Below are positions 10,488-46,961 of a stretch of 64,000 bases of DNA, in pieces. Source of the stretch: a virus (Duplodnaviria; Caudoviricetes); IMG/VR virus record IMGVR_UViG_3300028887_000100, positions 1 to 64,000 of that record, one strand, 5' to 3'. Both the position numbers and the translations under genes were made by a program. The stretch's first letter is position 1. Each line of letters starts with the position of its first letter. A model generated the notes under the pieces. That model saw only the letters and a program-made list of their open reading frames with translations, ran no database searches and was not told where the DNA came from.

Positions 10488-10493
10488 AACTAC

Positions 10494-11645: not shown

Positions 11646-11662
11646 GTTAATTAACTCCTTTC

Positions 11663-12172: not shown

Positions 12173-12302
12173 CAGCTTCCACCTCAATTCCATGTTTCTT
12201 TAACTCTTCTCGAACAACTATAGCAGTAAAAGCTGAAACTGCTCTCATCTGTTCATCAGTTAAAGTCTTAAGAATATCTTCTATTGTTTTCTCTTTTTTC
12301 AT
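12159..12302 (-). CDS. 47-aa helical protein B (missing from ORF track)
   Basis: MKKEKTIEDILKTLTDEQMRAVSAFTAIVVREELKKHGIEVEADEQE; overlaps both neighbours. Confidence 0.75.
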   Translation of the reverse strand: MKKEKTIEDILKTLTDEQMRAVSAFTAIVVREELKKHGIEVEADEQE

Positions 12303-13228: not shown

Positions 13229-13253
13229 TGGTCCGCCTCCTCATTGAATATCT

Positions 13254-13523: not shown

Positions 13524-13584
13524 GATATTGTACCTCCTTCCACATATTTTTGTTATTACCAAATTATTAACAGCATTAATATCT

Positions 13585-14445: not shown

Positions 14446-14708
14446 TACTGATTCATACCATTATTTGCTTTAAATTGTTCATCCGCAGCCTTCTTGTCTT
14501 TGTTGTAGGCAATAGTAGATACACCAATGAGTGCGCCTATCAAGCCTGCAGTTGCATTGATTATTATGACAATGGTATTAACAGTAGTGGGATCTACATT
14601 AAGAGCACCTAATACCAAAGATAAGAATGTAGCAAGAGCAGGAAGTGCAATAAGTGCAATCCACTTGAGCCAATTGTAAAGTGCATCAGGAATTTTAGGC
14701 ATAATCAT
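14445..14708 (-). CDS. Holin
   Basis: 87 aa with two TM helices and charged C-terminus, directly upstream of the lysin. Confidence 0.8.
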   Translation of the reverse strand: MIMPKIPDALYNWLKWIALIALPALATFLSLVLGALNVDPTTVNTIVIIINATAGLIGALIGVSTIAYNKDKKAADEQFKANNGMNQ

Positions 14709-32415: not shown

Positions 32416-33426
32416 TCATTCAGTTGTTTCTGTGGTCTCGGTAGTCTCAGTTGTCTCTGTAGTGCCGGTTGTGCCAGCATCAGTGATATTGAACTGAATT
32501 GCATCTGACTTCTTGTTAAGAATGAATGCGTCCTCGAAAGACTCCTCGTAGTAAACATACTTGCCTTCTGACATTGCTGAAGGAGCATCAAGTCTTGAGA
32601 AGGTGTAGCTTACAGGTGTGATGACTGCAAGCGGATGAACAAGGAACATGTTAATCTGCTTTGCTCCGGGAGCTACTTCCCAACCTGTAGTAAACTTATA
32701 AGCTGTTTTCATAAGTGTTGAAGGAACACCAATGATTTCAACCTCATCAAGTCTGTTTACTCTACGGTCGATTGCGTTAGGTCCTGAAGTGATGTCCATT
32801 GAACGTGAAATCTTATCAGCATTGCCGATGAGCTTCTTAACTTCATTGGTTACATACAGGATACGACCTGTAGGAGGTACCATTGCATTATCCATCTTCA
32901 GCATTAAGTCATCAAATACATTGAGGACATTCTGAAGAGTAAGAACTGTGGTATCAGGAGTATGAGTCTCCTGAGTACGAGGATTCTTTGTCTCAAGCCA
33001 ATCTGTGTAAATCTTGGAAATGAGGTAAGCATCCATTTCGGGGAACTTCTGCTCTGTATTAAATACGTTAGTGATGTTAGCGATGGTTGCTACCATGTTG
33101 GTCTGGTCAATGTCCATAGGATGAACAAGTGTAGACCACTTTCTCTGATTCTCAAGGGTCTTGGGCTCCCAAGCGTTGTCGTAATTACGCTGTGCAAATG
33201 CTACGGTATCTCTGTCAGCATTAACACGACCGGAAGTTGAAATGCTGGGAATCTCGATAGTCTTTGCACTTGTCCAACGATATCTACCATTGTTAGGTGT
33301 GCTGTAGAGCTTACCAAAGTTGAGGACGTAAGGCCACATCTGTGATAACGCTCTTGAATACTCGGTAGCATAATTGATGCCACCCTGTGCGGTTGTGCCA
33401 TTGTTTGCGGGTGCTACATAAGGCAT
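32416..33426 (-). CDS. Major capsid protein (HK97 fold)
   Basis: INYATEYSRAL, AKTIEIPSI, FPEMDAY, QINMFLVHP, YEESFEDAF. Confidence 0.9.
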   Translation of the reverse strand: MPYVAPANNGTTAQGGINYATEYSRALSQMWPYVLNFGKLYSTPNNGRYRWTSAKTIEIPSISTSGRVNADRDTVAFAQRNYDNAWEPKTLENQRKWSTLVHPMDIDQTNMVATIANITNVFNTEQKFPEMDAYLISKIYTDWLETKNPRTQETHTPDTTVLTLQNVLNVFDDLMLKMDNAMVPPTGRILYVTNEVKKLIGNADKISRSMDITSGPNAIDRRVNRLDEVEIIGVPSTLMKTAYKFTTGWEVAPGAKQINMFLVHPLAVITPVSYTFSRLDAPSAMSEGKYVYYEESFEDAFILNKKSDAIQFNITDAGTTGTTETTETTETTETTE

Positions 33427-33454: not shown

Positions 33455-34129
33455 TTACGGCATAGGTCTAATCGGCGTAAAGTGCATCGCATTTAAAAAG
33501 CCTCCAGTCGGGTCACCTGCGTTTACATCTTCAGCTCCGGGTGTAGAACCTACGAACTGCGGTTTGCTCTCAGAACCTTCATTAAACTGATTTAAGTCAA
33601 TCTCAGTAATGAACGCGTCCTGATTGCTTTCGGTGTATGACTTCAAAAAGTCATCAGCACCAAGAATGGAGTCATTCTCCATCTTTAACTGCTTTGCAAG
33701 CATAGACTGTATGAAGTCTCTTTTAGCGGCCGTACTTGAGAACGTCTGTCCATCAGCATACCTATTAACTGCATACTTATAGGCCTGCTCCTGTAACTGC
33801 TTCTTATAAGCTTTTGAATCCTCATCATACTTAGACTGTAAAGTCTGAAGCTGTGTGGTAAGCTCGGCAAGCTTTGTAGTATCTGCGCCTGCACTCTCAA
33901 GCTGTTTCTTTAGAGTCTCCAAGTCTGTGTCGCGTGTTGAGATTGTACCTGTAAGAGTCTCAATCTCTCTTGCTTTTGACTCAAGCTCGGCATCAAACTT
34001 ACTCTTGGACACATATGCGCCCTCACTCAAATCAGCAAACTTAGCATTGCCAGCTTTAGCTAATTCGGAAAACTGTTCATAAGTCAATACGCCATTCTCT
34101 GCTTTGTCAAAAATTTCTTTGATGTTCAT
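33455..34129 (-). CDS. Capsid scaffolding protein (GP20-like)
   Basis: GAYVSKSKFDA, coiled coil, LGADD, KPQF; upstream of the capsid gene. Confidence 0.85.
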   Translation of the reverse strand: MNIKEIFDKAENGVLTYEQFSELAKAGNAKFADLSEGAYVSKSKFDAELESKAREIETLTGTISTRDTDLETLKKQLESAGADTTKLAELTTQLQTLQSKYDEDSKAYKKQLQEQAYKYAVNRYADGQTFSSTAAKRDFIQSMLAKQLKMENDSILGADDFLKSYTESNQDAFITEIDLNQFNEGSESKPQFVGSTPGAEDVNAGDPTGGFLNAMHFTPIRPMP

Positions 34130-34572: not shown

Positions 34573-35793
34573 TCATTTCACCGAAATTTTTTTGTAACCA
34601 TTTACCTGTATCTTGCCAAGCTTCATAGACAATCCACAAGCTTTGGAAAACGCGCTGTATTCTGCGGTATATCTATTTATCTTGACTTGATATTCCTTAG
34701 CTAATTCCATGTCTCCTGCGCTTTGTGCGGCTATCTGACCATCTTTAGCCTGTCTTATCTTTGTTTCAAGCATTCGCTGTCGCTGTGTGCATTCATACAT
34801 TGTGAGATGTTTACCATTTGGAAATGTATATCCCTCTTGATTCTTCTTGAGTATTTCCTGTAACTGTTTATCTGTGTACGTCTGACCTTCAACACCTATA
34901 ACTATTGATATCGCAAAGTGCCTACAGTTCAAAGTGCCTACAGCTCTTTCAAAGCCTTGATATTCTCTGCCTTGTACATCTTTGAAGTTTTCAGCGTTCT
35001 GCATCTTCTCAAATTCAGCTTTTGAGTACTGGTGCCCTTGCATCTCTGCATGGTCAGGAGCGGGATTCATATGTACTGAGATTTCAACACCATCAGCTCC
35101 AAACTCTTCACCGACTATATTCTGCATCTGCTGGTTTATAGCTCTCATTCCGTCTTGAAGATTTCGCCTGACAGCTGTATCAAGTCTCTGCGCGTATGTT
35201 CTTCCACTCTCTGTATTGTAGACTACATAACGTATACCATTCTCGCATAACTGCTTTAAAGTGTTGTGCATCGCTGTCCTGTAATCAACTCCACCAGATG
35301 CGGCCTGTACTGCTTCATCCACGATTCTTTGATATGTTCTGGCAACATTTGTTGGTATGAATCTCTTAGGATTTTTAGGGTCTCTGACCATAAAAGCCTG
35401 TGCTTTCGCGATGTTCTTATAGCTGTCTGATGTCTGACGCGCCATAGCTTCTACGCGTCTTTTCAACACTGTATTTTCATCATATGGTATATATGACTTC
35501 TTCCTAAAATCATAGAATGGCTTTGCGCTTCTGTATGCATCTTTAGCAACAAATCTTACCAGATTCTGTATATCTGCAACCTGTAAAGCTGTAAGACTTG
35601 CAAGCTCTTCCATTATCTTCTTTGCATCTGCGCCTGTATTTCTTAGATTAATCAGTGTTTGGACATCAGAAGGTAGCACCTCGCCAACTTCTTTTATGCG
35701 CTGTGCTATCTTCTTGATTAACCAAGTGTTTATTCTCTGCTGTCGATTGATTATAGGCTCTATGAGTCTGTTTAATGCATCATCTGGTAACAT
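34573..35793 (-). CDS. Phage minor capsid protein 2 (MuF-like), no toxin extension
   Basis: AVRRNL, VEISVH..PAPDH...QG, NCRH, QRQRMLETKIR. Confidence 0.9.
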   Translation of the reverse strand: MLPDDALNRLIEPIINRQQRINTWLIKKIAQRIKEVGEVLPSDVQTLINLRNTGADAKKIMEELASLTALQVADIQNLVRFVAKDAYRSAKPFYDFRKKSYIPYDENTVLKRRVEAMARQTSDSYKNIAKAQAFMVRDPKNPKRFIPTNVARTYQRIVDEAVQAASGGVDYRTAMHNTLKQLCENGIRYVVYNTESGRTYAQRLDTAVRRNLQDGMRAINQQMQNIVGEEFGADGVEISVHMNPAPDHAEMQGHQYSKAEFEKMQNAENFKDVQGREYQGFERAVGTLNCRHFAISIVIGVEGQTYTDKQLQEILKKNQEGYTFPNGKHLTMYECTQRQRMLETKIRQAKDGQIAAQSAGDMELAKEYQVKINRYTAEYSAFSKACGLSMKLGKIQVNGYKKISVK

Positions 35794-35794: not shown

Positions 35795-36019
35795 TTACTC
35801 CTCTGCGTTTGTTGTGGTCGTAGTATCGATTATAGCCTTGATACTCAGCACGGGTGTTAAAAGCTCCCAATGCTTTACTTCGCTCTCCTTGATATCACTG
35901 GAAAGACTTTCAAAGCCTGTCGATTTCAAACTTACAATCTCAGCTCCCGTACTCATCTCATGAATATTGACTGTTACGCTGGGTGTGGTCAGTGTTGATA
36001 AAAGGTCTCTAAGTGTCAT
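35795..36019 (-). CDS. Small hypothetical protein
   Basis: 74-aa ORF coupled between portal and minor capsid. Confidence 0.55.
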   Translation of the reverse strand: MTLRDLLSTLTTPSVTVNIHEMSTGAEIVSLKSTGFESLSSDIKESEVKHWELLTPVLSIKAIIDTTTTTNAEE

Positions 36020-37686
36020 GAATCGAATCCTCCTTTGTTTTTGTTGAAGTTATTATTATCCTCGTTATTGCTTCCCATAATCATGTCATTTTCTGCGCTC
36101 TGTATGTTCTCTTTGTCGATTTCCTGAAGTGCCTGCTCTGCCTGTCTCTTTGTCTCTCCAAAATACCACATTCTGACTTCTACTTTGCTTGCAAGACCAG
36201 CATTCATGAGTGATAATCTCTTATTCAGCTCGGTATCTACATCTACCAAGATTGAATCGTCCCACTCAAATGATGCATCATAATCTCCATCGGGTGTGAT
36301 GTCGTATAAGTCACAGTATGCATTCATGATGTAAATGACATCGCGCAAAGTATCTTCCAATGAATCCTGTATGTCTTTATTCGTCTGGAATGCTCTCTGC
36401 TTCATGGATTTAATCTCTGTTGCTGTCTTAGCTTCCATTGTAGCGTCTGAAAGACTGCCTCGTCCTAATCCAGCGACATCTTCAATTCTCATGAGTATTG
36501 CATTAAGTCCTTGTATATAAGACGAATCCCGCAACGTAGGTGCGTAGGGCTGATATGTATTGGATTCGCCCAAGTCGATAGTTCTGAAAAGTCTTGCCTG
36601 TAAGTGGTTCATGACTGTCTGTCCGCCGCCCTTGCCATCTTCTCTAAACTGCATAGCATCACGGTCAATATCGATTGCCATCTCGCCTGCTTCATACTCC
36701 CACAGCATTCTTGAATACTGAAAATCTGCATCTTTGATGAGGTCTTTTACTCTGCTGTATCCAGATACACCAAGCGGTGATGATGTATCAATCGTATTAG
36801 CTTCTGGCATTCTGAAGTATGCAAAAAGCGGTTTCTGTATATTCTTGATAGTCACTGTCTCTTTTAAGTCTTTCCATGACGATACGCTCGACAGAGGAAC
36901 TTCCTGACCTAAATCCAATCCGTTTAAATCATCTTGATTTCCTTTGTTTGTCGTAGACTTGAATGCCTTGTTGATAATGGTCACTGTGTTATTCTTCCAC
37001 TTGTGATATTCAAGTCTCCTGAAAATGATGTCTTTTTCTATCTGAGTCTGTACAAAAGCGGCCTCTGTAATCTGTCCACTTGCGTCAAAAGCTAACGGGA
37101 AAAAGCTGTCTGCCTGTATGAAGTCAAATTCAATCTGCCAGTCAGTGTCTTTACCATCTACTTCATTAGCTACAAGATACGGCTTGATAACAAGTCCACC
37201 CTTTGCTATGCCATACTCTAACTGCTTTCTAAGCTGTTTCTTTAGCTTCTTGTATTGCTCGTTGAGATATTCAGCTCTATCAGTAGGACCAATAGCTCTG
37301 TCCTCTGTAATTGTCTTAGGCTCTAAGCTCGGCATGATATTGCCATACTCATCAGGCTCAGGCTCTTTGTATTTAGGATTAGGTCTTTCGACTTCTTCAG
37401 TAGGAGTGGTAATCTCGCTTTCAAACTCAAGCAAAGCTGTCCTTGCCTTCTCGCTTGCTATCATTGCAGGTAAGCCAAGCGATGCAATCCTCACAGGGTC
37501 CTGCGGAGTAGGTTCTTTAAGCCATGGAGCCTGATTCTTGTACATGTCAGCCCAAAGCTGTATAGCGTGTTCCATCTGTGATGACATAATAGGTGTTACG
37601 TGTAAAGTCTGTTCGATTGTCCTTGCTCCTATCATCTTCTTCAATATCTCCTTTAATTTTGATATTATACTTGACCAAAATGCCAT
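36016..37686 (-). CDS. Portal protein (A118-like)
   Basis: MIASEKART, GGLVIKPY, PLGVS, EWDDSI, MWYFGET. Confidence 0.9.
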   Translation of the reverse strand: MAFWSSIISKLKEILKKMIGARTIEQTLHVTPIMSSQMEHAIQLWADMYKNQAPWLKEPTPQDPVRIASLGLPAMIASEKARTALLEFESEITTPTEEVERPNPKYKEPEPDEYGNIMPSLEPKTITEDRAIGPTDRAEYLNEQYKKLKKQLRKQLEYGIAKGGLVIKPYLVANEVDGKDTDWQIEFDFIQADSFFPLAFDASGQITEAAFVQTQIEKDIIFRRLEYHKWKNNTVTIINKAFKSTTNKGNQDDLNGLDLGQEVPLSSVSSWKDLKETVTIKNIQKPLFAYFRMPEANTIDTSSPLGVSGYSRVKDLIKDADFQYSRMLWEYEAGEMAIDIDRDAMQFREDGKGGGQTVMNHLQARLFRTIDLGESNTYQPYAPTLRDSSYIQGLNAILMRIEDVAGLGRGSLSDATMEAKTATEIKSMKQRAFQTNKDIQDSLEDTLRDVIYIMNAYCDLYDITPDGDYDASFEWDDSILVDVDTELNKRLSLMNAGLASKVEVRMWYFGETKRQAEQALQEIDKENIQSAENDMIMGSNNEDNNNFNKNKGGFDS

Positions 37687-37696: not shown

Positions 37697-38578
37697 TCAT
37701 TTTTTGCGCTCTTTGCGGTCTGATTTTGACTCTATTGTAAGTGGTACCATGTATTCAAGCTCTCCATTTGTTGACATCTGTCCCCACGTATCAATTGGTC
37801 GTAACTGCATACTTGATACTTTTGGCTCTCCACCATGCTGTGAACCCGTAGCTCCATCTTTACCATATGCAAAATTCTCAGCTATCTTTTTATCTGGTGT
37901 ATATGATGTAAACACATCATCCGAAACAAGTTTTTGACCAGATGTTCCTCTATAAACTGTTATTGGCGTATATAACCAAGTCTTATAATCCATAGGTTTT
38001 TCATTTTTATCCAAACCAGTTTTATAATTGTGATATGCCACATTAAGTGATGCATTAAGTACGCCTTTATTATAAAACATTTGCTCGGCAATACGAGGCT
38101 TATATGATGAGTCTCCGTTTCTAAACCAGCCTGAAATATGACTTGCTTTAATTGAGTCCGTAATTTTATCAATCGCATCATCCATCGACATTTCATGTAG
38201 ATTTTTGATTTCTTCTTGACGCTTCATCTCGTACCACAACTGCCGTATGGAATCCAGACCCTCATTTGCACCAAACTGCTTAAACAATCTATTAGATAGA
38301 TTTTTATCTATAAACTCATCCACATCATCAGCATCTTTTAGTGGTCCTAATGACTTAATATCAAAATTATCAATCATGGAAGCATTTTTATCTTCGGCTC
38401 GTTTTTGTATCTCAGCTTGTTTCTTGCTTGCATCTATCTGCCGTTGCTTTTCGTCATTCTCTTTTTTGACCTCATTCTGACGCGCTGTAAAATTCTTGAT
38501 TGCATCGTCTTTCGATTGACCTTCCATAATGGGTATATGCTGTCCATTAATTGTTATCCAAGCTTTCACTCCTGCCAT
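37697..38578 (-). CDS. WIT-leader protein with ADP-ribosyltransferase domain
   Basis: WITINGQHIPI; ITVYRG (R), FTSYT (S), GELEY (ExE). Confidence 0.75.
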   Translation of the reverse strand: MAGVKAWITINGQHIPIMEGQSKDDAIKNFTARQNEVKKENDEKQRQIDASKKQAEIQKRAEDKNASMIDNFDIKSLGPLKDADDVDEFIDKNLSNRLFKQFGANEGLDSIRQLWYEMKRQEEIKNLHEMSMDDAIDKITDSIKASHISGWFRNGDSSYKPRIAEQMFYNKGVLNASLNVAYHNYKTGLDKNEKPMDYKTWLYTPITVYRGTSGQKLVSDDVFTSYTPDKKIAENFAYGKDGATGSQHGGEPKVSSMQLRPIDTWGQMSTNGELEYMVPLTIESKSDRKERKK

Positions 38579-39224
38579 GTATCTTCTCCTCAAGCTCTTT
38601 TATCAAGTCATCATCTGTCCAATACTGCGCTCTTACCGGCTCTTTACGTTTTCCACCACTGCCACCGCCTAAAAGATAGTCTACATGGTCAACAAGATTC
38701 GGCATTATATTTAAGGCACAGCAATCACGCTGAAACTCTTTTAAATACTGTCTGAATGCCCAATCATCATTGACTCCCTTTTCCCAATACTGACGGTAAA
38801 CAGGATTTCCAATGATGTATTTATTTACCCACTCAGCACACCAACGTGCCCACATGTTGGGTATTCTGATGCAAGGAAAACTAAACCACATACGCGCTCT
38901 CGGCACTGCTCCTCTCTTGTTTGCTTCATCACCATCGTAAAGCTTACTTGAGAATCCACACACAAGTCCGTTATCATACCACTCTGTCCTCTGCTTAAAA
39001 TCTTTACAGATGAGAACATCATCTTGCAAATGCCAAGTGCCTCCGATATCGTTTGGACAGCTTGCAAATGCGCTCATACAAGCCCGCAAGTTGCCTTCTC
39101 CCTTACTGTCATTATACACTGTAATGTCATCTTTTGCAATACCTTGTGCCAACATTGATGGAATTAAATATTGCTCTACATACCACAGCCTTTTCGGATA
39201 TGTGTGTATCATGTATTTTGCCAT
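38547..39224 (-). CDS. Glycosyltransferase (GT-A-like)
   Basis: WHLQDDVL (DxD-like), FSFPCIRIP, LVDHVD. Confidence 0.7.
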   Translation of the reverse strand: MAKYMIHTYPKRLWYVEQYLIPSMLAQGIAKDDITVYNDSKGEGNLRACMSAFASCPNDIGGTWHLQDDVLICKDFKQRTEWYDNGLVCGFSSKLYDGDEANKRGAVPRARMWFSFPCIRIPNMWARWCAEWVNKYIIGNPVYRQYWEKGVNDDWAFRQYLKEFQRDCCALNIMPNLVDHVDYLLGGGSGGKRKEPVRAQYWTDDDLIKELEEKIHGRSESLDNN

Positions 39225-40739
39225 TTACTTTCTCCTGTCTATCTCTGTCTGACTGCCTTTCCGCAACCAGTTATAGTAATACATCAAAGCATCAAATTCC
39301 ACCACTCTCAATCGCTTTGAAAACATCTGCCTATGAAACTGCACATCACTCTTGGAACGTACATTTCCAAATCTTGAATCTCCGATGCTTGTGCGTTTCC
39401 AAGCTTTATTCCATGTCGCTATCCAATACCCACCAGTTGGTAATTGTGGTCTTGCATACAGCCAATCTTTGAAAATAAAGCTGAAGCATAGAATATCTGG
39501 CTCGTTCTCTTCTCTCAGCTTTCGGTCAAGTTCTGTCAATACATATTCATGTATCCACCAGTCATCGTCATCCATGAAGAGTATGTAATCGCCTTTAGCT
39601 TCTTCAATACCTCTATTTCTCGTTGGTCCATCACAGTGATTTTCAACTGTAAACACTTTGTCGGTGTATTCTCTGGCTATGCTTTCAGTGTTGTCCGTAC
39701 AACTGTCACATACGATTATCAACTCGAAATCGCGAAAAATCTGCATTTTTATGCTTTTCAACGCTTTTCGGATGTGGTTTTCAGCGTTAAAAGCTGGAAT
39801 TATGATGCTGAATCTTGGCTGGTATATACGCTTTGCAAGTGCTTTTATACCCTCTTGGAATTGATGTCTTTCGTGTCTTATAGACTGTCGGTAACCATCA
39901 AAATCTGACTTACATGTCTCATAATGCTTCAGCACTTCCCGAATCTTCTCACATATTGCTGGCAAGTTCTTGCTGTCTCTGTCAAATTTGTATTCCTCTG
40001 GTATGTTCACATCGTCTCGATATTTGGCACTACCTTCTCTGTCTGTGATTATACAACAACCTCTGGACGCTGATTCTCTTGGCATTCTATCTTTGCCGGG
40101 ATGCTCACCAAAGTCAATATACAGCTTGCTACTGTCCATCAGACTTATAATCTGTGTCTGTGTCAAGTTGCATATTGGCATAAATGTCACATCAGGCATT
40201 CGTGATATTATCTGCTCCGTAAAATCCATACCCTTTTTAGGATTATACAGTACAATATCCGAACGCTCTGTGACGCTCATATTTGACAAATAAGCTGGGT
40301 TTATATAATCACCTGTATAAATTATCTGCTTCGCATCAATACCGCTCTTTATGAGAAAATCTGACGCATAAAATGACTGTGTGAGATGCAAAATCCTATT
40401 GTATTCTTTCGGAACTGCATCTCTGCCAGTCCACTTCTTGTAGTTATCTACACTTTCCCAGAAAATAATGCTTCGATTGTTCTTGAATCGCTCTATCTTC
40501 TTGGCCCAGATTTCTGGAAATATCAGAACTGCATCACTGTCTGGACTGTCTGTAACGATGTAATTACACCCATATGCTTTAGTATATCGCTCTGGCTGTG
40601 GATTGTTCAACTGCTTTGCGATATACCACATTTTTGCACATATATCGGCTTGCTGATTCAATTCCCAGCATAACTGATGTAAAAGCTCTATTCCACCTGT
40701 TTCGCAACGCTCTGGACATGCTACAAACACATTGACCAT
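39225..40739 (-). CDS. Two-domain glycosyltransferase (GT-B-like plus GT2)
   Basis: GGIELLHQL...GKDRMPRE; FSIIIPAFN...DSCTD...RNRGI...FMDDDD. Confidence 0.85.
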   Translation of the reverse strand: MVNVFVACPERCETGGIELLHQLCWELNQQADICAKMWYIAKQLNNPQPERYTKAYGCNYIVTDSPDSDAVLIFPEIWAKKIERFKNNRSIIFWESVDNYKKWTGRDAVPKEYNRILHLTQSFYASDFLIKSGIDAKQIIYTGDYINPAYLSNMSVTERSDIVLYNPKKGMDFTEQIISRMPDVTFMPICNLTQTQIISLMDSSKLYIDFGEHPGKDRMPRESASRGCCIITDREGSAKYRDDVNIPEEYKFDRDSKNLPAICEKIREVLKHYETCKSDFDGYRQSIRHERHQFQEGIKALAKRIYQPRFSIIIPAFNAENHIRKALKSIKMQIFRDFELIIVCDSCTDNTESIAREYTDKVFTVENHCDGPTRNRGIEEAKGDYILFMDDDDWWIHEYVLTELDRKLREENEPDILCFSFIFKDWLYARPQLPTGGYWIATWNKAWKRTSIGDSRFGNVRSKSDVQFHRQMFSKRLRVVEFDALMYYYNWLRKGSQTEIDRRK

Positions 40740-40742
40740 ATA

Positions 40743-42056
40743 TCAATTACCCTTTCTGTTAGCGTATTTCTGTAATGCATAACGCACCGCATCTATTGAA
40801 TGGTTGTTTTCGTCTGGATATGCGCTTATGAAGTTGCCATCTCTGTCCTGCTCATATTCATACTGAGTAAATTCCTTATAGGTCTCGGGACATCTTCTTG
40901 CATCGATGTAAATATGATTTAAGCCTTGCAACCACTTTATGCCATATCGTACCGAATCTGGTCCTTTGTCAGCGCCTCGAATGAATGCTCCATATGCTTT
41001 AAAGTCTGCGATTGATTTTTCCTCTGCGCTGTCGGCTATTACCAGCTCATCCTTGCGTACTTTCTTCAGGTCATTGTATAAAATATCGAATACAACCTGA
41101 TTTCGCGTTTTTACTGTGTTGTACTCATCAAAGATGTATAAATCCAAGTGCTTGATATCAAAATGCATTCTGACATAGCGGAACGGGTCTCTCGCAAAAC
41201 CCCAATCGATTCCATTGTATATCTCGCTGAACGTCTGCCACATCGGCACTTTTTTGTCCTCAATTCCCATGCCGTTGTAATGAGATACAAGCTTAGTCAT
41301 ATCCAAATCGCAAGCATTCGGAAATACATCTCCACCTGTTCCTACAGGAACTCCCATGTATTCATGCTCATACGCTCTCGGATTCTTCTCTTTCAGCTCG
41401 TTTGCTTCTTCAAGAAACTCTGGTCCTAACCAGCTCTTAGGCACTTGTAAATATGTGGTTCTTACTACCAGTGTAGACTTTTGAGGTCTCAGCTCATATC
41501 CTTCTACAAACTCATTAGCCCAATTATTCTTTGAGATAGGCGGGTTAAACGTTCTGAAATCCCAAAACAGCTCGCCACCACGCTTTGTAGACTGTGTTAC
41601 TTTTCTAAGCTCGCGCTCGCCCGCGAATTGGTCAAGCTCCTCGAACCAGTCTATACCGATGTATCCGAATGCCGGCTTTATTGATTTTACTTTGTCCGGG
41701 TCATCAAGTCCCATGAAGTAGATTTTCTGACCTGTTGGTATGTACTCGATTGGTGTTGAATAGTTTTTAGATATCTTAAATAAATCCTGCAATCCAAGCT
41801 GATAGATTCCCCAAACTACCTGTGGGAATATCGATGTCTGAATCGTATTGGCTATCTTTCTAAAACAGACTGCATGTATATTTGGGTATGCTGTGATTAA
41901 CAGCGGTATCGCTATTCCACCAACAAATGATGACTTTGTGCTTCCTCGTCCTCCCGGAAATATGTACCTGCTATGTCGATGGTCAAGTATATCTTCTAAA
42001 ACATCAAAAAAGTCAGGTATAATACAGTCACGGAGAGGGATATTAATTTGTGGCAT
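40743..42056 (-). CDS. terL: Terminase large subunit (PBSX family)
   Basis: GGRGSTKS Walker A, WFEE Walker B, TFNPP, GIDWG, NHSIDAVRY. Confidence 0.95.
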   Translation of the reverse strand: MPQINIPLRDCIIPDFFDVLEDILDHRHSRYIFPGGRGSTKSSFVGGIAIPLLITAYPNIHAVCFRKIANTIQTSIFPQVVWGIYQLGLQDLFKISKNYSTPIEYIPTGQKIYFMGLDDPDKVKSIKPAFGYIGIDWFEELDQFAGERELRKVTQSTKRGGELFWDFRTFNPPISKNNWANEFVEGYELRPQKSTLVVRTTYLQVPKSWLGPEFLEEANELKEKNPRAYEHEYMGVPVGTGGDVFPNACDLDMTKLVSHYNGMGIEDKKVPMWQTFSEIYNGIDWGFARDPFRYVRMHFDIKHLDLYIFDEYNTVKTRNQVVFDILYNDLKKVRKDELVIADSAEEKSIADFKAYGAFIRGADKGPDSVRYGIKWLQGLNHIYIDARRCPETYKEFTQYEYEQDRDGNFISAYPDENNHSIDAVRYALQKYANRKGN

Positions 42057-42109
42057 ATCTGACTGCATCCTTTCCTGTAAAATCAGCAAAAAGCAGGTTG
42101 GTAGCCTGC

Positions 42110-43270
42110 TTAGATGTTATACTGTTTTTTAAGTTTTAAAACGTCCTGCATATAATTATCAATCTGCTTTTCGTTAAGCGTGAACTCGCCAGATGACTCG
42201 CTGAAGCGTTTCCATGATGCTTGGTCTTTTATGCTTAGACCTTTTCCAGCTTTGCTCTCTGCTGTGAGTCTCAGATTTCTGCCAGCATTGTCATATACTT
42301 TAAGTGAATCAACAACACCAGACAGCTTTTGTACCGCGTCATATGCTTTTCTATGTGCGGCTGTCAGCTGATGCAATGGAACAAGTCTTTTCTGCTTCAC
42401 GAATCTATCCAAGCTGTTTTGTCTTACCGTTTTGAAATCGCTGTAAACAAATGACATCTCGGTCTTGTAACCAGCTTTCTTTGCGGTATCTAAAAGCTTA
42501 TAAACTCCACTGCCTGTAGCTGTACCGTCATACAGTGTCGGATAGTTGTTCTGTAAAGCTGTGTTGTATATCTGCTTTGCAAGTGCTGAAGATTCCTCAT
42601 GATAATACGCTGTGAGTCTTTCATCCATCTCTTTTCCATCAGCTTTAGCAAGTGCTTTTTTGATATCATCAGGGTCAATCAGCATCGGGTTTTTATTCTG
42701 TGAGTAAAAATCTCCAATATTCTTACTGAATACACCCTTACCAGATGCGGCACCACCACCCGTAAACATAGCGACTTTTTCCTCACCCGGCGCATACGGC
42801 TTATGGTCTTTGAAATAATTTTCCATAATCTGTCTGTGTACTTCAGCACGTTCAGGAGATAAATTACCATTTTTATCAAGATGGTCAGCAAATGATTGTT
42901 CACCAGCGTTTCCTGCTTCTGATGTGTCTATCTTATCAACTTCCTTGCCCTTAAACATCATCTTGCCATTGCTCATTGTGACTTTATCGCCTTTTGCCAA
43001 TTCATCTCTGTACTTAGACTCATTATTAAGCTTTTCCGCGTCTGTTTTGTTCTTAGCTATATCTTTATCTTTCTTATGTGCATCTAAGCTGTTTCCTGTC
43101 ATTTTAGAGCTATTGGAAGCTGTATTTGACTTGTTGCTCTGCGTAGACTTCTTTCCTGTTGCTTCCGCTACTCTGTTTTTGATGTCTGCGTCAGTATCAC
43201 CAGCATATATCGGAATATGTTTTCCACCCTTTAGTGTTATCCATCTTTCGGGTTCGCGCTCTTTTGCCAT
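42110..43270 (-). CDS. WIT-leader protein with zeta-toxin-like P-loop kinase domain
   Basis: WITLKGGKHIPI; GGGAASGKG, IDPDDIK, HEESS, YDGT. Confidence 0.8.
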   Translation of the reverse strand: MAKEREPERWITLKGGKHIPIYAGDTDADIKNRVAEATGKKSTQSNKSNTASNSSKMTGNSLDAHKKDKDIAKNKTDAEKLNNESKYRDELAKGDKVTMSNGKMMFKGKEVDKIDTSEAGNAGEQSFADHLDKNGNLSPERAEVHRQIMENYFKDHKPYAPGEEKVAMFTGGGAASGKGVFSKNIGDFYSQNKNPMLIDPDDIKKALAKADGKEMDERLTAYYHEESSALAKQIYNTALQNNYPTLYDGTATGSGVYKLLDTAKKAGYKTEMSFVYSDFKTVRQNSLDRFVKQKRLVPLHQLTAAHRKAYDAVQKLSGVVDSLKVYDNAGRNLRLTAESKAGKGLSIKDQASWKRFSESSGEFTLNEKQIDNYMQDVLKLKKQYNI

Positions 43271-43282
43271 GATGCTCTCCTC

Positions 43283-43531
43283 TCACATTAATCCATATTG
43301 TATCGCTGAAGCTGTCTCATATAATGCCAGATTGTAATACTTAAACTCTGCATCATTCTTGAACGCTGACCGTTCACGTGCCTGTTTCTTTGATGTGACA
43401 TCACTATTGGCCATATTGCTTATCTGTGTCAATCTGTCAGCATCTACCTGCTTCGCGTCTGCATCAGTAAACTCTGCGCCTTTGGCTTTACTCTTGTAAT
43501 AAGCTATCTCTTTATCATTCAGTTTCGCCAT
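43283..43531 (-). CDS. Small helical protein, candidate antitoxin for the zeta-like gene
   Basis: Immediately upstream of the zeta-like gene, as epsilon is in epsilon-zeta systems. Confidence 0.5.
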   Translation of the reverse strand: MAKLNDKEIAYYKSKAKGAEFTDADAKQVDADRLTQISNMANSDVTSKKQARERSAFKNDAEFKYYNLALYETASAIQYGLM

Positions 43532-44174
43532 TGCTCTTCCTCCAATCAAGCTTTATTGTCATGACGTTATCAGGTACACCCTTAACTCTGTTGTCTATGT
43601 CTACTGTCCTCTTTGCAAGCTCCTGACCAGCTTTTATTCTATCTGCTAATGTCGCATCAAGTCCAAATTGGTCTTTGATTTCGCCATTCATCACCTTGGT
43701 CAAAAACTTCATAACGTCTGCGGCTGTCGCGATTGCATGTTCCTCTTTCTTGGCATTGAGTCGGTCGATTTCCTTTTTCACCTTCTCCAGTGTCAACAAA
43801 CGCGATGCCTGCTTACACGCTGTTGTTTCCTTATACCCTGCTCTTATGGCTGACTGCTGTCCATTGCTTGTTTCTGCATAATAGATACAGAATAATTTCT
43901 GCTGTTGGTTAAGTACATCTGGACAGTTTCTTTTCTGCTTGAATCCTTTTTGTCTCTGTACTCTTGGTTTCTTTTCTTTCTTTGGTTCTTCTGTTTTCTT
44001 TTCTGTTTTTGCTTTCTTTTCTTTCTGCTTTTTTTCTTCTTCCTGTTTGTATGTATCTTGTAATAGTTTTAATGTACTTCTATGTGTTGTTTTGGAGCTT
44101 TTCGATGTGCTTTTCTTTTTTATGGATTTTCCCGCCGATTTTTTTGTTTTCTTCTTCTCAGTGTCTTTATCCAT
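43515..44174 (-). CDS. terS: Terminase small subunit with long basic N-terminus
   Basis: LNQQQKLFCIYY...NGQQSAIRAGY...ASRLL...DRIKAGQELAK. Confidence 0.9.
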   Translation of the reverse strand: MDKDTEKKKTKKSAGKSIKKKSTSKSSKTTHRSTLKLLQDTYKQEEEKKQKEKKAKTEKKTEEPKKEKKPRVQRQKGFKQKRNCPDVLNQQQKLFCIYYAETSNGQQSAIRAGYKETTACKQASRLLTLEKVKKEIDRLNAKKEEHAIATAADVMKFLTKVMNGEIKDQFGLDATLADRIKAGQELAKRTVDIDNRVKGVPDNVMTIKLDWRKSNGETE

Positions 44175-44192
44175 TGTATCAGCTCCTTTTTA

Positions 44193-44393
44193 TTAATACA
44201 TCATGTCTAAACAGCTTGCTGTTGCCTGTGGCATATATGCAGGTATATTTCTTTTACTGAATCCGTCATAATGCTTTTTTAACAGGCTGTCTACATCTGG
44301 TTGCTTAAAATAGGTATCTGTCTCTGCATCAGTATAATTACCGCACTGCTTAAAATATGTCTTTACCGACTGTGTATACTCCTGTAATGTCAT
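44193..44393 (-). CDS. Small partner protein, candidate immunity
   Basis: Directly downstream of the GNAT-like gene; start MTLQEY. Confidence 0.55.
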   Translation of the reverse strand: MTLQEYTQSVKTYFKQCGNYTDAETDTYFKQPDVDSLLKKHYDGFSKRNIPAYMPQATASCLDMMY

Positions 44394-44408
44394 CTTTAAA
44401 CCCTCCAA

Positions 44409-45209
44409 CTATTTTATGAATTTATCTCTATACTTCATTGCATCATCATATCCATTTTCACCCGTAAAGGGCTTATTATTATTCTTAAACTCTTCAAGGT
44501 CTGTATTCTTTACTTTACCAATACCAACATATCGGTAAAATACTACATCTTCACGACCACATCCGCTTTCTTTCCATCCTTTTGGCGCATATTTCTCATT
44601 GAACTTTGTATAACTTACAGGCTCAAATCCACAGCTTACATAAAATTCATGATTACCATCAAAACTATCAAGCTTTCTGCCTCCAAGTTTTACTGCTTCA
44701 GCCATCAGCTCTCTGCCTTTCATTTTATCATTGGTATTCTTGCATAGGCTGATTATATCACCATTTCTGTCTACTGCTACTGTAGAACCACCTTTACTGA
44801 CATAACATGCACAACCACGTGCTTTATAATCCTCTATTGTATGTGTATCATCTACTCTCCACTTATCAGCAATAGGACGGCTCTCTTTAGCAGTTACTAA
44901 TGATTTATTAAATGATGCTGGGTTAACTGTCTGTAAAGCTTTTGTGGTATTTTCTGATTGCTTCGCATTATCTGCTTCTTTCTGATTTCTTGCTATCTGC
45001 TGGTCTTTCTCATCTTCATTTTTGGCGATGCTCTTCTGGTCATCTGACTGCTTGGTCGCTGTCTTTTTATCAACTGTTTTGTCTGATACTGTCTTTGTCT
45101 TGCTCTGCTTTCCTACAAAGCTCTTTACTGCATCAGCTTTAGACTGACCTTTCATGATAGGGACTCTGTTACCGTTTACAGTTATCCACTGTTCTATCTC
45201 TTTAGACAT
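44409..45209 (-). CDS. WIT-leader protein with GNAT-like domain
   Basis: WITVNGNRVPI; DIISLC...GRELMAEAVKLGGRKLDSF...FYVSCGF. Confidence 0.65.
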   Translation of the reverse strand: MSKEIEQWITVNGNRVPIMKGQSKADAVKSFVGKQSKTKTVSDKTVDKKTATKQSDDQKSIAKNEDEKDQQIARNQKEADNAKQSENTTKALQTVNPASFNKSLVTAKESRPIADKWRVDDTHTIEDYKARGCACYVSKGGSTVAVDRNGDIISLCKNTNDKMKGRELMAEAVKLGGRKLDSFDGNHEFYVSCGFEPVSYTKFNEKYAPKGWKESGCGREDVVFYRYVGIGKVKNTDLEEFKNNNKPFTGENGYDDAMKYRDKFIK

Positions 45210-45210
45210 A

Positions 45211-45396
45211 TCATTCTACCTCTTCCAAATCTTCTTCTCCTACTGCGTAGACTTCATCCAAATCTGACATCACTCCCCACGCGTCAAGCTCTCTGTCATA
45301 TCCACGTACTTCATAAATCTTACCTTTTTCAAAAGCTCCATTAGTCTCTCCGATGTACTTAGCTTTACTTCCTTTGTGTAACATTTTCATCCTCAC
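45211..45396 (-). CDS. SH3-like small protein, candidate immunity
   Basis: KAKYIGET...KGKIYEV...DEVY...EDLEEV; overlaps the stop of the upstream effector. Confidence 0.6.
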   Translation of the reverse strand: MRMKMLHKGSKAKYIGETNGAFEKGKIYEVRGYDRELDAWGVMSDLDEVYAVGEEDLEEVE

Positions 45397-45941
45397 TTTC
45401 TGTCCTCAAGATTCTTCTCATGAATCTTGATAAATGCTTCACGAACATATCCATCTTTACCCTGTACCCAATGTACTTCTCTATCTAACACTTTAGAGCC
45501 GTTTGTTATCTTAGCGAATCCAGCACAATGTTGCCAATCTTCGGGATTTTTACCGCTCTCTGGATATCTCTTTGCGTACTTCTCTGCATCTCTGAATACT
45601 TTGGAACAACCTTTACCCGCAAATACATAAGCACCTGTAATACTTGTGCCTTCTTTAAATCTAAACCGCTCTTTTGTCTTGAGATGCAAGACGTCAGAAA
45701 ACTTGTTAGCATCTTTGGCAGGTATATCGCTGAGACGTAAACGCTTAGGCGGTTCTTGTTTATTTCTCTTATCTGCTTCAGCTTTACTCTTTGACATCTG
45801 ACTGTTTTTTCTTCTGTCATCTTCCATCATCTTGGTAAATCTGCCAACAGCGTCATCTTTTGACTCGCCCTCATATATTGGTACATGATGTCCGTTGACT
45901 GTTATCCACTCTGTTATGTTTTTCATGTCATCGTTCCTCAA
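45393..45941 (-). CDS. WIT-leader protein with putative nuclease-like toxin domain
   Basis: WITVNGHHVPI; FAGKG...RDA...EDWQH..G...REVHW. Confidence 0.65.
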   Translation of the reverse strand: MRNDDMKNITEWITVNGHHVPIYEGESKDDAVGRFTKMMEDDRRKNSQMSKSKAEADKRNKQEPPKRLRLSDIPAKDANKFSDVLHLKTKERFRFKEGTSITGAYVFAGKGCSKVFRDAEKYAKRYPESGKNPEDWQHCAGFAKITNGSKVLDREVHWVQGKDGYVREAFIKIHEKNLEDRK

Positions 45942-46260
45942 TCTTAACTAAGCTATAATCAATGTTTTTCCTCTTCTTGATTATTTCCCATTCTGCATTA
46001 TCTGTTGGTATTTCCTGACCTTGAATGTAACACCAGATATCACGTAAAAAGAATACTATCTGAATCATTGATGTGGACTCAAAAAGCTTCTCTTTCTTGT
46101 GCTTAGTCTCAGTATCTAACGATTGACAGATTTTGTATATAGTGATTGGTCGATTTTGGTCTTTACTGAAAAACTGCGATTTCTCATAGAGGATTCTTCC
46201 TCCACTTTGATTTATCGCGTTTTGTAGCTTGTGTATCATCACACGATTAGAAGCAGGCAT
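45928..46260 (-). CDS. Hypothetical phage protein
   Basis: 110-aa ORF with RBS, first gene after promoter 46300-46328. Confidence 0.65.
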   Translation of the reverse strand: MPASNRVMIHKLQNAINQSGGRILYEKSQFFSKDQNRPITIYKICQSLDTETKHKKEKLFESTSMIQIVFFLRDIWCYIQGQEIPTDNAEWEIIKKRKNIDYSLVKIEER

Positions 46261-46478: not shown

Positions 46479-46961
46479 TCACTCATAACAGAATAATTCT
46501 GGTTTATCTCCTTTTACTTTGATGGTCAAATATACACTTGAACCGTTTTTACCTTGTCCTTGATATACTACATTTTTTGGACATACCCATTTAGTTCCAT
46601 ATATCAGTAGGTATTTTGCTAATAACACTGTTCGTTCTTTTGCTTGCCGTGTTTTAAATCCTTTACGTGTTACACTTGCATACTGACCTTTTGCAAGTAT
46701 GACTTTCTCTATTGTATCACCACTCCATCTTGGTGAATTTACTCGGTTTATTACAACTGCACCTGTCAATAGTAATCGTATCATATCTTGCAACTCACTA
46801 TAACCACCAGGATTTTCATTCTCTATCGCCATAGTTCCTGATAAGTGTTGAAGTGCTGTAGCATTTACATCTCCTAATTGTGATGGTGAAGTTATCACGC
46901 CTTTAAGTATCAGCACTAAGACTATAGGTGCTATACACTGCATCCGTATATAGTTTATCAT
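46479..46961 (-). CDS. Cell wall hydrolase (SleB-like)
   Basis: GAVVINRVNSPRW...TIEKVI...GQY. Confidence 0.8.
   Translation of the reverse strand: MINYIRMQCIAPIVLVLILKGVITSPSQLGDVNATALQHLSGTMAIENENPGGYSELQDMIRLLLTGAVVINRVNSPRWSGDTIEKVILAKGQYASVTRKGFKTRQAKERTVLLAKYLLIYGTKWVCPKNVVYQGQGKNGSSVYLTIKVKGDKPELFCYE

Follow-up and report, generated by a model that had tools for sequence, protein, structure and literature searches.

A hairpin-helix tag shared by four effector-like proteins encoded in the packaging module of a rumen phage probably marks proteins carried in the virion

The choice of proteins for packing into the phage head and for injection is known in detail for only a few model phages, through the CTS of T4, the Dar proteins of P1 and gp7 of SPP1. 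In T4 the CTS, a short peptide at the N-terminus (some 10 residues in the best-studied internal protein), attaches to the scaffolding core and is cut off by the prohead protease gp21, of the S77 type; to our knowledge it occurs only in T4-type phages. Loading of the Dar proteins is hierarchical and protein-specific and is not known to proceed via a common short tag. It is established that the internal proteins and Alt of T4 are ejected with the DNA (PMC3012670, PMC5512222), and the P1 proteins DarA, DarB, Hdf and Ddr are head-internal, loaded in morphogenesis, ejected, and active in the next host (PMC12810830). For MuF toxins and polyvalent proteins, packing is presumed to result from their being fused to a head protein, and their cargo is predicted in the literature to be packaged (PMC5512222, PMC5576092, PMC3482391).

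In the window (the whole analysed stretch of 64,000 nucleotides of a rumen phage), the initial annotation had described four ORFs with a common leader. All four are present at the positions that it named, which are the stop-codon ends of the ORFs on the minus strand (Table 1, L1 to L4). Their N-termini are MAGVKAWITINGQHIPIMEGQSKDDA (L1), MAKEREPERWITLKGGKHIPIYAGDTDAD (L2), MSKEIEQWITVNGNRVPIMKGQSKADA (L3) and MKNITEWITVNGHHVPIYEGESKDDA (L4). The leader begins 6-9 residues past the Met in every case and follows the pattern W-I-T-x-N/K-G-x-H/R-[IV]-P-I-x-x-G-x-S/T-K/D-x-D, with W, I, T, G, P, I, G and D the same in 4/4 copies. When the complete virus record (81,871 bp) was scanned with the profile, it yielded these four copies and no others. 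At the DNA level the leaders are about 65% identical, with TGGATAAC as the sole exact common word, and the invariant Pro is written with four different codons, so the likeness lies in the protein and not in the DNA, which points to selection on the peptide. The second, loose helix reported behind the leader is also real; it is rich in K, Q and E and recurs in relatives with the consensus NEDxKxKQIAxNKxEAD. Each of the four proteins ends in a single C-terminal domain.

Table 1. Leader genes, small partner genes and surrounding packaging and head genes in the window
Feature	Coordinates	Strand	Description
Putative major capsid protein	32416..33426	-	Position after scaffold gene; 72-82% identity across related loci
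Scaffolding protein	33455..34129	-	PF06810, E=2e-17
Short MuF-superfamily minor capsid protein (MuF2)	34573..35793	-	PF06152, E=3.5e-55
Portal protein, SPP1 gp6 type	36016..37686	-	PF05133, E=3.8e-9
L1	37697..38593	-	298 aa by ORF, 293 aa from the likely start, ATG at 38578; WIT leader, helical middle domain, ADP-ribosyltransferase-like C-domain
GT2-family glycosyltransferase (504 aa) and conserved 225-aa protein	38547..40739	-	PF00535, E=3.8e-23 (glycosyltransferase)
Terminase large subunit (terL)	40743..42089	-	PF04466 and PF17288
L2	42110..43270	-	386 aa; WIT leader (KGG turn variant), S/N-rich linker, zeta-toxin kinase domain
p88	43283..43549	-	88 aa, small, helical; upstream of zeta-type gene; candidate antitoxin in epsilon position
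Terminase small subunit (terS)	43515..44174	-	PF03592, E=8.4e-24
p71	44193..44408	-	71 aa; small partner directly after L3
L3	44409..45209	-	266 aa; WIT leader, long K/T/S-rich linker, 170-aa C-domain (phrog_2563)
p61	45211..45396	-	61 aa; start overlaps L4 stop; candidate immunity/partner protein
L4	45393..45941	-	182 aa by ORF, 177 aa from likely start; WIT leader, linker helix, 110-aa C-domain without fold match

The interleaving of these genes with terS, terL and portal was confirmed by Pfam matches for all three, the portal being of SPP1 type. The short MuF protein had been said to lack a toxin extension, and this is borne out by the Phage_min_cap2 model, which spans residues 4-382 of 406 and thus leaves no C-terminal extension. 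The glycosyltransferase and the 225-aa protein belong to the module without being leader proteins and are kept between terL and portal in most related loci, while the putative major capsid protein has no Pfam match. Leader and packaging genes are tightly packed or overlapping; terminator-like sites are no commoner than in shuffled sequence, and none is prominent between them. Elsewhere the phage genome holds two copies of Tox-PL1, and a search for prohead proteases, which covered the two families S78 and ClpP-type, returned none.

We named the leader, a portable tag of about 35-40 residues with the following consensus, the WIT module: (R/K)-E-(V/I)-K-Q-W-I-T-V-N-G-x-H-(I/V)-P-I-(F/Y)-E-G-E-S-K-x-D-A-(V/I)-(K/N)-R. 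A profile of 40 positions matched 1,261 protein clusters (50% identity) at E<=0.001 among 1.84 billion representatives, 291 of them at E<=1e-10; by this independent search, the likeness of the leaders is not due to chance. Among the 147 best matches examined, 139 have the tag at the N-terminus, and 116 of the matches hold at least 69 unrelated C-terminal regions; a set of 60 leader proteins gave 35 C-terminal clusters. Identified domains behind the leader include Zeta_toxin, ADPrib_exo_Tox, ART-PolyVal and Gln_amidase, and many cargo regions are long, rich in K and E and not evidently enzymes. The initial description of the leader as beta-hairpin-like agrees with the fold predicted from a single sequence (pLDDT ~90), a two-stranded beta-hairpin with an N-G turn and then a helix, with a low-complexity linker and the swappable C-terminal domain behind. 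In 199 pattern-fitting aligned copies W, T and G were invariant, P reached 97% and H 92%; the invariance of W, T and G is partly circular, because the selection pattern fixed W and G and limited the T position to T, S or N, with P and H unconstrained. Independent profile alignments gave W, G and P as invariant and T and H at 90% or above.

No model in Pfam (including the LPD1-40 models), NCBIfam or PHROG matches the tag and we found no publication describing it; the tag is widespread and apparently undescribed. Compared with solved structures, the profile matched no DNA-binding fold, its sole match being a sortase-like strand pair (E=0.0018), and the module has no consistent Asn or other known self-cleavage motif. 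Leader-only mini-proteins exist, such as a 57-aa protein in locus L013, and some cargo homologues have a degenerate leader (L010, 17885-18406) or none (L027, 9303-9797, and the zeta-like protein of L025).

Four cargo identities had been proposed, of which the zeta toxin was verified and the ADP-ribosyltransferase (ART) is likely, while no support was found for the GNAT-like and nuclease-like readings. Residues 151-332 of L2 match PF06414 (E=4.8e-24; 85.3 bits against a gathering cut-off of 22.3), and the Walker A or P-loop motif GGGAASGKG is visible. The C-domain of L1 is likely an ART, judging from its motifs YRG, F-x-S-Y-T/S-P and E-x-E, which resemble the R/S/ExE motifs of the R-S-E clade and are invariant across 7 homologues, and from its closest named Atlas clusters, which are ART families; this part has no Pfam ART match and no PDB sequence match, and its AF2 model is poor (pLDDT <50). 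For L3 as a GNAT there was no Pfam match at E<=0.1, no PDB match and no named Atlas neighbour, the sole family match being phrog_2563, which has no functional annotation; a relative, P0007, has nearly the same leader and linker with a different C-domain. L4 as a nuclease or BECR RNase had no Pfam or PDB sequence match, and its best structural Z-score was 4.5 on a low-confidence model. C-domains of the L4 type are also found in P0169, which is bivalent, and at the C-terminal end of P0167, a polyvalent protein fused to portal.

Three of the leader genes had been credited with a small adjoining partner, and the linkage of p88, p61 and p71 to cargo type proved to be conserved. Of 7 distinct loci with a zeta-type gene, 6 have a p88 homologue directly upstream of it, and a p61 homologue lies directly downstream of an L4-type gene in all five loci (L005, L010, L011, L021 and L027). 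The sole other L3-type gene found (L010) is also followed by a p71 homologue (2/2). No match was obtained for p88 in Pfam, including the epsilon family, or NCBIfam.

Across phages, the leader profile returned the many C-terminal domains that the initial annotation had expected, and linkage to head genes. At every locus with identifiable neighbours (~40 of 45) the leader genes lie in the terS-terL-portal-head module, and leader homologues unlinked to head genes, which the annotation held to speak against its reading, were absent from these loci. The 31 IMG/VR loci have 1-6 leader genes each, in varying slots between a conserved upstream gene, terS, terL and portal, and in distant loci with other head types the leader genes are likewise found in the packaging/head module.

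The proposal that the system is MuF-independent had to be given up, as other phages carry WIT directly behind MuF, portal or a DUF2213 scaffold and before effector domains. The fusions are Phage_Mu_F-WIT-Gln_amidase/Tox-PL1 (L043, L048), Phage_portal_3-WIT-DUF5710 (L050), Phage_portal_3-NUDIX-WIT-WIT-ADPrib_exo_Tox-WIT-(L4-type domain) in P0167, a real ORF under table 11, and DUF2213-WIT (P0021, L040, P0152), where DUF2213 corresponds to gp24 of Pa193, a putative scaffold that was found in virions, attached to the inside of the capsid (PMC11456595). Within polyvalent proteins WIT is repeated, with 7 copies in P0023 (2,440 aa) and 3 in P0167. No domain is commoner than Tox-PL1 beside or fused to WIT (5 among 112 neighbour ORFs, plus L043 and L048), and the WIT-linked cargo that overlaps with MuF toxins and polyvalent proteins comprises zeta toxin, ART, Tox-PL1, LPD3, MuF_C, NUDIX and nucleotidyltransferase. 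What is new is that WIT, in other phages, links an anchor inside the capsid to an effector, and it therefore belongs to the MuF/polyvalent effector world and does not stand apart from it; WIT is a junction module of that known world, here split and free-standing.

Taken together, the placement of the genes in the head module, the varied cargo and the fusions behind portal, MuF and scaffold suggest that WIT probably marks proteins that travel in the virion. We give an even chance to the fuller reading, in which the phage carries a polymorphic effector system and each of the four genes is one of its free-standing effector cassettes, WIT-tagged for head loading and ejection. The cassettes would be made late, from the tightly packed operon shared with terS, terL and portal, and the tag would recruit the effector to the assembling procapsid or hold it at the exit route, with the conserved W/T/H/P face of the hairpin binding a head-internal component. 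The effectors would exit together with the DNA to act in the cell infected next, and p88, p61 and p71 would be small cognate partners restraining toxic effectors in the producing cell; packaging, docking partner, ejection, toxicity and immunity are what we infer here.

The fusions behind three different capsid-internal proteins, before effector domains, count for the tag, as do head-module linkage, the retention of WIT at the extreme N-terminus of stand-alone proteins, selection on the peptide, cargo overlap with MuF toxins and polyvalent proteins, partner-gene linkage and tight gene packing. Against docking counts the near-identical hairpin across phages with differing portal, MuF, scaffold, capsid and terminase families (SPP1_portal versus Phage_portal_3, PF06810 versus DUF2213, Terminase_3 versus Terminase_6); such constancy is unexpected for a docking peptide, unless the bound site is conserved to an unusual degree or WIT binds something other than a head protein, and a docking role would be redundant where WIT is already fused to portal, MuF or scaffold. 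The cargo homologues with a degenerate or absent leader and the many K/E-rich cargo regions also count against the tag. It is possible, if somewhat doubtful, that WIT is a general portable tag for capsid loading or ejection across very different tailed-phage head types, acting via a conserved internal site (e.g., portal or the MuF hub). If so, packaging and delivery along with the DNA would extend to any WIT-bearing protein, phages would carry tagged effectors in exchangeable cocktails, and proteins of choice could be loaded into phage heads by means of the tag.

The exact position of WIT at anchor/effector boundaries, and before each unit of P0023 and P0167, would also suit a junction or processing module without docking role, which marks the boundary joining effector cassettes to their carriers, as the VENN and DPxGL motifs do in CdiA and Rhs toxins. 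The effector would be released at WIT by a protease (e.g., a Tox-PL1-type papain peptidase) or by self-cleavage, and the free-standing genes would be fission products that retained the junction. The frequency of Tox-PL1 beside WIT fits such release, Zhang et al. having suggested that Tox-PL1 is possibly a releasing peptidase (PMC3482391), and the pair L3 and P0007 shows that cassettes are exchanged behind WIT; by the geometry of the predicted hairpin, T and H are expected to be cross-strand neighbours and might form a catalytic pair. However, a processing site would be useless 6-9 residues from the N-terminus, where most clusters keep WIT, the DNA identity of the paralogues is too low for a recombination site, and neither an S78 or ClpP-type prohead protease in the genome nor a known self-cleavage motif was found. 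On stand-alone proteins an N-terminal WIT has no junction to mark and must therefore serve the effector itself, and we regard a pure junction role as unlikely.

We consider it similarly improbable that the proteins are unpackaged and that WIT binds a highly conserved host factor or nucleic acid, or drives oligomerisation or regulation. In that case the site of action would be the producing cell, late in infection (host shut-off, superinfection exclusion, abortive functions) and the place in the head operon would reflect late timing only. A hairpin near-invariant across unrelated head families would fit a binding partner whose conservation lies outside the virion, toxin-antitoxin pairs that act inside the cell, such as zeta/epsilon, typically include a cognate antitoxin-like protein, and the leader-only mini-proteins point the same way. 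This leaves unexplained the repeated fusion of WIT to portal, MuF and scaffold, and the varying slots strictly inside the packaging module and not among other late genes; the structure search, moreover, gave the leader no DNA-binding fold.

Because WIT stands alone on single effectors or between anchor and effector, it makes the choice of packed proteins directly testable: one may ask whether 35 residues suffice for loading, and to which partner they bind. WIT also allows candidate injected effectors, most of them without known family, and their immunity partners to be catalogued in gut and rumen phages simply by sequence. Should the tag prove sufficient, it would be a tool to load proteins into phage capsids.

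In comparison with known systems, the T4 CTS and Alt resemble the WIT proteins in having a short N-terminal tag on otherwise unrelated proteins, with an ART among the cargo; on the proposed reading they would also share a place inside the head and ejection with the DNA. WIT differs in being a conserved hairpin plus helix kept across very different phages, without sequence likeness to the CTS, and in a genome where a search for S78 and ClpP-type prohead proteases found none. With the P1 Dar proteins, the WIT model would by analogy share several head-internal ejected proteins, without sequence relation. As in zeta/epsilon pairs, L2 has a bona fide Zeta_toxin domain with Walker A and a small helical protein directly upstream; unlike them, the zeta domain follows a 150-aa N-terminal leader and linker, lies between terS and terL, and has a neighbour, p88, outside the epsilon Pfam family.

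The polyvalent proteins of phages and conjugative elements (Iyer et al. 2017, PMC5512222) likewise have effector domains predicted to be packaged and delivered with DNA, are fused to MuF or portal, share LPD3, MuF_C, ART-PolyVal and NUDIX, and include the WIT-bearing giants P0023 and P0167, while that article's text makes no mention of such a junction hairpin. Each window protein has one effector, whereas two or more effector domains occur in the relatives P0023, P0167, P0121 and P0169. With the MuF toxins of temperate phages (Jamet et al. 2017, PMC5576092; Zhang et al. 2012, PMC3482391) the system shares packaging-module genes beside portal and terminase, an architecture in which the N-terminal part is constant and the C-terminal toxin domain varies, candidate immunity genes that are small and adjacent (the zeta-type partner here lying upstream) and an overlapping toxin repertoire (Tox-PL1, ART, RNase-type tips), and the MuF toxins of L043 and L048 contain WIT between MuF and toxin. 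In contrast to MuF toxins, none of the four proteins matches a MuF domain (PF04233, PF06152, MuF3/4) at E<=0.1, the phage's own MuF is a separate short form of 406 aa, the constant part is only ~35-40 residues long, and a single genome has several WIT cassettes, their number reaching at least 6-7, dispersed among terS, terL and portal.

The stretch from 32.4 to 46.3 kb of the window forms a single minus-strand operon whose genes are tightly packed or overlapping, and the four proteins L1 to L4, each of which carries the WIT module (a shared N-terminal hairpin and helix of about 35-40 residues), are distributed among its packaging and head genes. The initial annotation had described four toxin-like enzymes interleaved with terS, terL and portal, in the company of a MuF-like minor capsid protein without a toxin extension, and this arrangement was borne out by the Pfam assignments, in which the PF06152 model spans residues 4-382 of the 406-residue minor capsid protein. 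The leader cassettes begin immediately after the 110-aa phrog_33130 protein. In a consensus scan, promoter-like and terminator-like sites were no more frequent than in shuffled sequence, and no terminator-like site was conspicuous in the intervals separating leader from packaging genes; directly upstream of the operon, at ~46.3 kb, there is one terminator/promoter-like pair. The GT2 glycosyltransferase and the 225-aa protein between terL and portal are also present in most related phages, and this interval is an unusual location for sugar-transfer genes. A cell-wall hydrolase ORF of the SleB type is found immediately upstream of the operon; along with the relatives of terL in Blautia and Clostridium phages, this hydrolase points to a host among the Firmicutes. 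Judged by terL, Blautia phage Montmirail (45% identity) is the nearest cultured phage; its terL-portal-MuF-scaffold-capsid module is compact and lacks the leader, and the leader cassettes are thus regarded as insertions into a standard module.

Features of the window and of the related loci and leader proteins
Locus or protein	Feature	Position	Strand	Remark
Window, gene 1	110-aa protein, phrog_33130	45928-46260	(-)	conserved first packaging-operon gene in most related loci
Window, gene 2	L4	45393-45941	(-)	WIT leader
Window, gene 3	p61		(-)	after L4
Window, gene 4	L3	44409-45209	(-)	WIT leader
Window, gene 5	p71		(-)	after L3
Window, gene 6	terS		(-)	PF03592
Window, gene 7	p88		(-)	before L2
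Window, gene 8	L2	42110-43270	(-)	WIT leader
Window, gene 9	terL		(-)	PF04466/PF17288
Window, genes 10-11	504-aa GT2 glycosyltransferase, then conserved 225-aa protein	38547-40739	(-)	
Window, gene 12	L1	37697-38593	(-)	WIT leader
Window, gene 13	portal, SPP1-type		(-)	PF05133
Window, gene 14	74-aa protein		(-)	after portal
Window, gene 15	short MuF2 minor capsid protein		(-)	PF06152
Window, gene 16	107-aa protein		(-)	after MuF2
Window, gene 17	scaffold protein		(-)	PF06810
Window, gene 18	putative capsid protein		(-)	last in transcription order
Window	cell-wall hydrolase ORF	46479-46961	(-)	PF07486, SleB-type
Window	second array, seven proteins	2962-13228	(-)	
Window	Gln_amidase/Tox-PL1 domains in second array	12425-12706, 9165-9479		
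L036	Terminase_6, portal-polyvalent fusion, Phage_Mu_F, DUF2213, cement protein, PF09950 capsid protein			E217-like myovirus
L062	L036-type head			leader within scaffold gene
L066	two-leader protein			immediately after Phage_portal_3 portal
L065, L067	leader proteins			adjoining terS and terL
L039, L046	small leader ORFs	1434-2036 (L039), 1834-2223 (L046)		immediately after terL
L013, L014	57-aa ORF	4400-4570 (L013), 1565-1738 (L014)		
L023	SNF2-type helicase	1514-4120		
L043, L048	Phage_Mu_F - WIT - Tox-PL1			Phage_Mu_F ends ~30 residues before W
L050	Phage_portal_3 - WIT - DUF5710			
L040, P0021	DUF2213 - WIT - K/E-rich tail			W 8-10 residues past domain
P0152	DUF2213, two WIT copies			copies much later
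P0167	Phage_portal_3 - NUDIX - WIT - WIT - ADPrib_exo_Tox - WIT - L4-type domain			
P0023 (L037)	2,440 aa, seven WIT copies	8001-15323		

In L1 to L4 the leader reads W-I-T-x-N/K-G-x-H/R-[IV]-P-I and then x-x-G-x-[ST]-[KD]-x-D, starting 6-9 residues past the likely Met, and a profile scan of the 81,871-bp IMG/VR virus record, which is rated complete, found four copies, all in these four proteins. Because the leaders are only ~65% identical in DNA and their third codon positions differ (the invariant Pro is encoded as CCC, CCG, CCT and CCA), conservation is considered to act on the peptide; a DNA-level recombination site was rejected in view of the same low identity. The consensus of 199 distinct copies is (R/K)-E-(V/I)-K-Q-W-I-T-V-N-G-x-H-(I/V)-P-I-(F/Y)-E-G-E-S-K-x-D-A, with P conserved in 97% and H in 92% of the copies, while the 100% reached by each of W, T and G is partly circular, since the selecting pattern fixed W and G and limited the T position to T, S or N. 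In the profile alignments, which are free of that selection, W, G and P are invariant and T and H are at least 90% conserved. Asn-dependent self-cleavage of the module was also rejected, as Asn is unconserved at both candidate positions. AlphaFold2 predicted from the single sequence of L4 two strands (residues 9-15 and 18-23) and a helix (28-59) with pLDDT ~90, and the geometry of such a two-residue N-G hairpin would turn W, T, H and P to one side and I, V and I to the other. In the PDB the leader profile matched a single entry, 3psq, in its first strand pair (E=0.0018); this entry is labelled 'hypothetical exported protein', and we take it to be a class B sortase. The remainder of the 3psq fold is absent, and the match was judged a short-motif likeness. 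No model in Pfam, NCBIfam or PHROGs matches the WIT module, no description of it was found in the literature searched for motif strings and packaging tags, and the module appears to be undescribed so far.

Scanning IMG/VR with the four leaders gave 31 loci, presumably mostly from rumen metagenomes going by the sample numbers, with one to six leader ORFs per locus of 57 to 720 residues, in which a regular-expression pass located the motif nearly always at the N-terminus. A family profile (53 sequences, 40 positions) searched against 1.84 billion cluster representatives retrieved 1,261 clusters at E<=0.001, of which 291 pass E<=1e-10, showing that the leader noticed in the four window proteins is real; among the 147 best hits examined, the motif was inside the first 15 residues in 139 and present in several copies in seven. 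A tblastn search with two leader versions against 50,697 GenBank phages returned no match, probably because the query was short and low-complexity filtering was on, and scanning the genome collection with a narrow peptide pattern also found nothing. With a DNA pattern, 21 loci were found in 185,579 species genomes, 20 of them with the full motif, and their hosts were gut Clostridia, Christensenellaceae, Acutalibacteraceae, Melainabacteria, a Bacilli MAG, an Elusimicrobia MAG and Turicimonas. Among 399 scored Clostridia genomes the leader was present in the seed genome and in none of the 398 others, and bacterial genomes only rarely carry the tag. In the gut Clostridia loci (L038-L055) an additional conserved stretch L-x-(N/D)-G-K-G-E-(D/N)-x-D-(I/V)-x occurs ~8 residues upstream of the WIT W, in small ORFs directly after terL such as those of L039 and L046. 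The 57-aa ORF of L013 and L014 is complete and consists of leader and linker without a cargo domain, and a 111-kb contig with leader genes (L023) also encodes an SNF2-type helicase split by an intein that bears an HNH endonuclease.

Most of the 31 IMG/VR loci belong to one clade with terL 65-91% identical, in which leader genes occupy varying slots between the conserved 110-aa gene, terS, terL and portal. The contexts outside this main clade agree with linkage to the head module, so the association of leader homologues with head genes holds in both. Pfam assignments of the 112 ORFs neighbouring the leader at 21 further loci were led by Terminase_3 (6), Gln_amidase (5) and Phage_Mu_F (4), and portal, capsid, Phage_min_cap2 and DUF2213 families were also represented. 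The MuF2 proteins of the clade end in V-x-G-Y-K-K-I, a likeness to the WIT hairpin which is faint and too weak for use.

The regions behind the leader are highly polymorphic, as had been proposed: BLAST clustering gave 35 clusters among 60 locus proteins, and 69 clusters among 116 representatives after 65 more linker residues were stripped. Pfam recognises only a minority of them, as Zeta_toxin, ADPrib_exo_Tox, ART-PolyVal, Gln_amidase (Tox-PL1), LPD3, MuF_C, DUF5710, CCA-type nucleotidyltransferase and NUDIX, and the biggest cluster comprises long K/E-rich proteins without obvious enzyme signature. As regards the four activities initially assigned to the window proteins, the zeta-like kinase stands (L2, 85 bits by Pfam) and the ART is likely. 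The latter call comes from YRG, S-Y-T/S-P and E-x-E motifs invariant in the C-regions of L1 and its homologues (seven homologues), whose nearest named ESM Atlas clusters are ART families; the ART part has no Pfam or PDB match, and AlphaFold2 with the 7-sequence alignment modelled the helical middle confidently and the ART part with pLDDT <50. The GNAT-like label for L3 and the nuclease-like label for L4 found no support: sequence and profile searches of L1, L3, L4 and their family profiles against the PDB gave nothing meaningful, L3 fell into unnamed ESM Atlas clusters only, and the L4 C-domain had no fold match (best Z 4.5), its single-sequence model being confident in the leader alone. Exchange of cassettes is visible from several domain combinations. 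The leader and linker of P0007 are nearly letter-for-letter those of L3 with a different C-terminal domain, the bivalent P0169 carries a P0007-type and an L4-type domain behind a single leader, and the portal-fused P0167 ends in an L4-type domain. A search with the L4 C-domain for longer, MuF-fused forms brought up nothing beyond the bivalent P0169 and gave no confirmation that this domain is the usual end of MuF genes.

Small adjacent genes had been noted for three of the proteins, and these are consistent companions. Homologues of p88 lie directly upstream of the zeta-type gene in six of seven distinct loci, those of p61 directly downstream of the L4-type gene in all five loci, and a p71 homologue is downstream of the sole other L3-type gene found. 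The slots of these pairs vary between phages, which indicates that each pair moves as a unit, and the linkage is the pattern expected for toxin-immunity or toxin-antitoxin pairs, which the partners may represent. None of p88, p61 and p71 matches a known family. L1 has no cargo-specific partner, the upstream 225-aa gene being conserved with or without the ART cassette.

The system had been proposed to be MuF-independent, and this did not hold, as the WIT module lies between MuF and Tox-PL1 in L043 and L048 and also occurs in portal and DUF2213 fusions. These internal motifs came from the bacterial-genome loci and some large representatives. DUF2213 now takes its name from Pa193 gp24, a putative scaffold located inside mature Pa193 capsids by cryo-EM and mass spectrometry (PMC11456595), and the fusions thus indicate that the module joins three different capsid-internal anchors to effectors. 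The effectors behind the fused anchors are of the same kinds as the stand-alone cargo of the window. In P0023 the helix ARAQ(I/A)VLQYAKALL recurs in front of every WIT copy, which makes the repeating unit longer than the leader alone; the possibility that such giant multi-leader proteins are gene-calling artefacts of an alternative code was rejected, P0167 and P0023 being stop-free under table 11. Elsewhere in the window, seven co-oriented proteins form a second array and share a different N-terminal module, HxG(I/V)xGQKWGxRR(W/Y)QNxDG(S/T)...G..RYF; two of the seven carry Tox-PL1, the cargo type also found behind WIT where other phages have it fused to MuF.

With respect to function, we see about an even chance that the WIT module is a tag which each effector needs for head loading, retention or ejection, such that the tagged effector would be loaded into, kept in, or ejected from the head through the module. 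The fusion partners and the gene neighbourhood tie the module to the capsid interior, and its being kept at the extreme N-terminus in over a thousand clusters of free-standing proteins speaks for its working on behalf of the effector and not of a junction. A processing or demarcation module would fit the junction position and the frequent association with Tox-PL1, yet leaves both the N-terminal stand-alone form and the low DNA identity among the leaders unexplained, and a search of the genome for S78 and ClpP-type prohead proteases found none; we consider it unlikely.

What counts against a tag for the head is that the hairpin hardly varies between phages with different structural-protein families, which implies either that the putative binding site is unusually conserved or that the module binds something other than a head protein. 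Such extreme conservation, as well as the antitoxin-like partners, would be accommodated if the module bound a conserved host factor or nucleic acid, or regulated or oligomerised effectors active in the producing cell, but the anchor fusions are then left unexplained, and this explanation seems to us improbable. With the fusions taken into account, the window system is a split version of the polymorphic and polyvalent effectors fused to MuF, portal or scaffold proteins (Zhang et al. 2012, PMC3482391; Jamet et al. 2017, PMC5576092; Iyer et al. 2017, PMC5512222).
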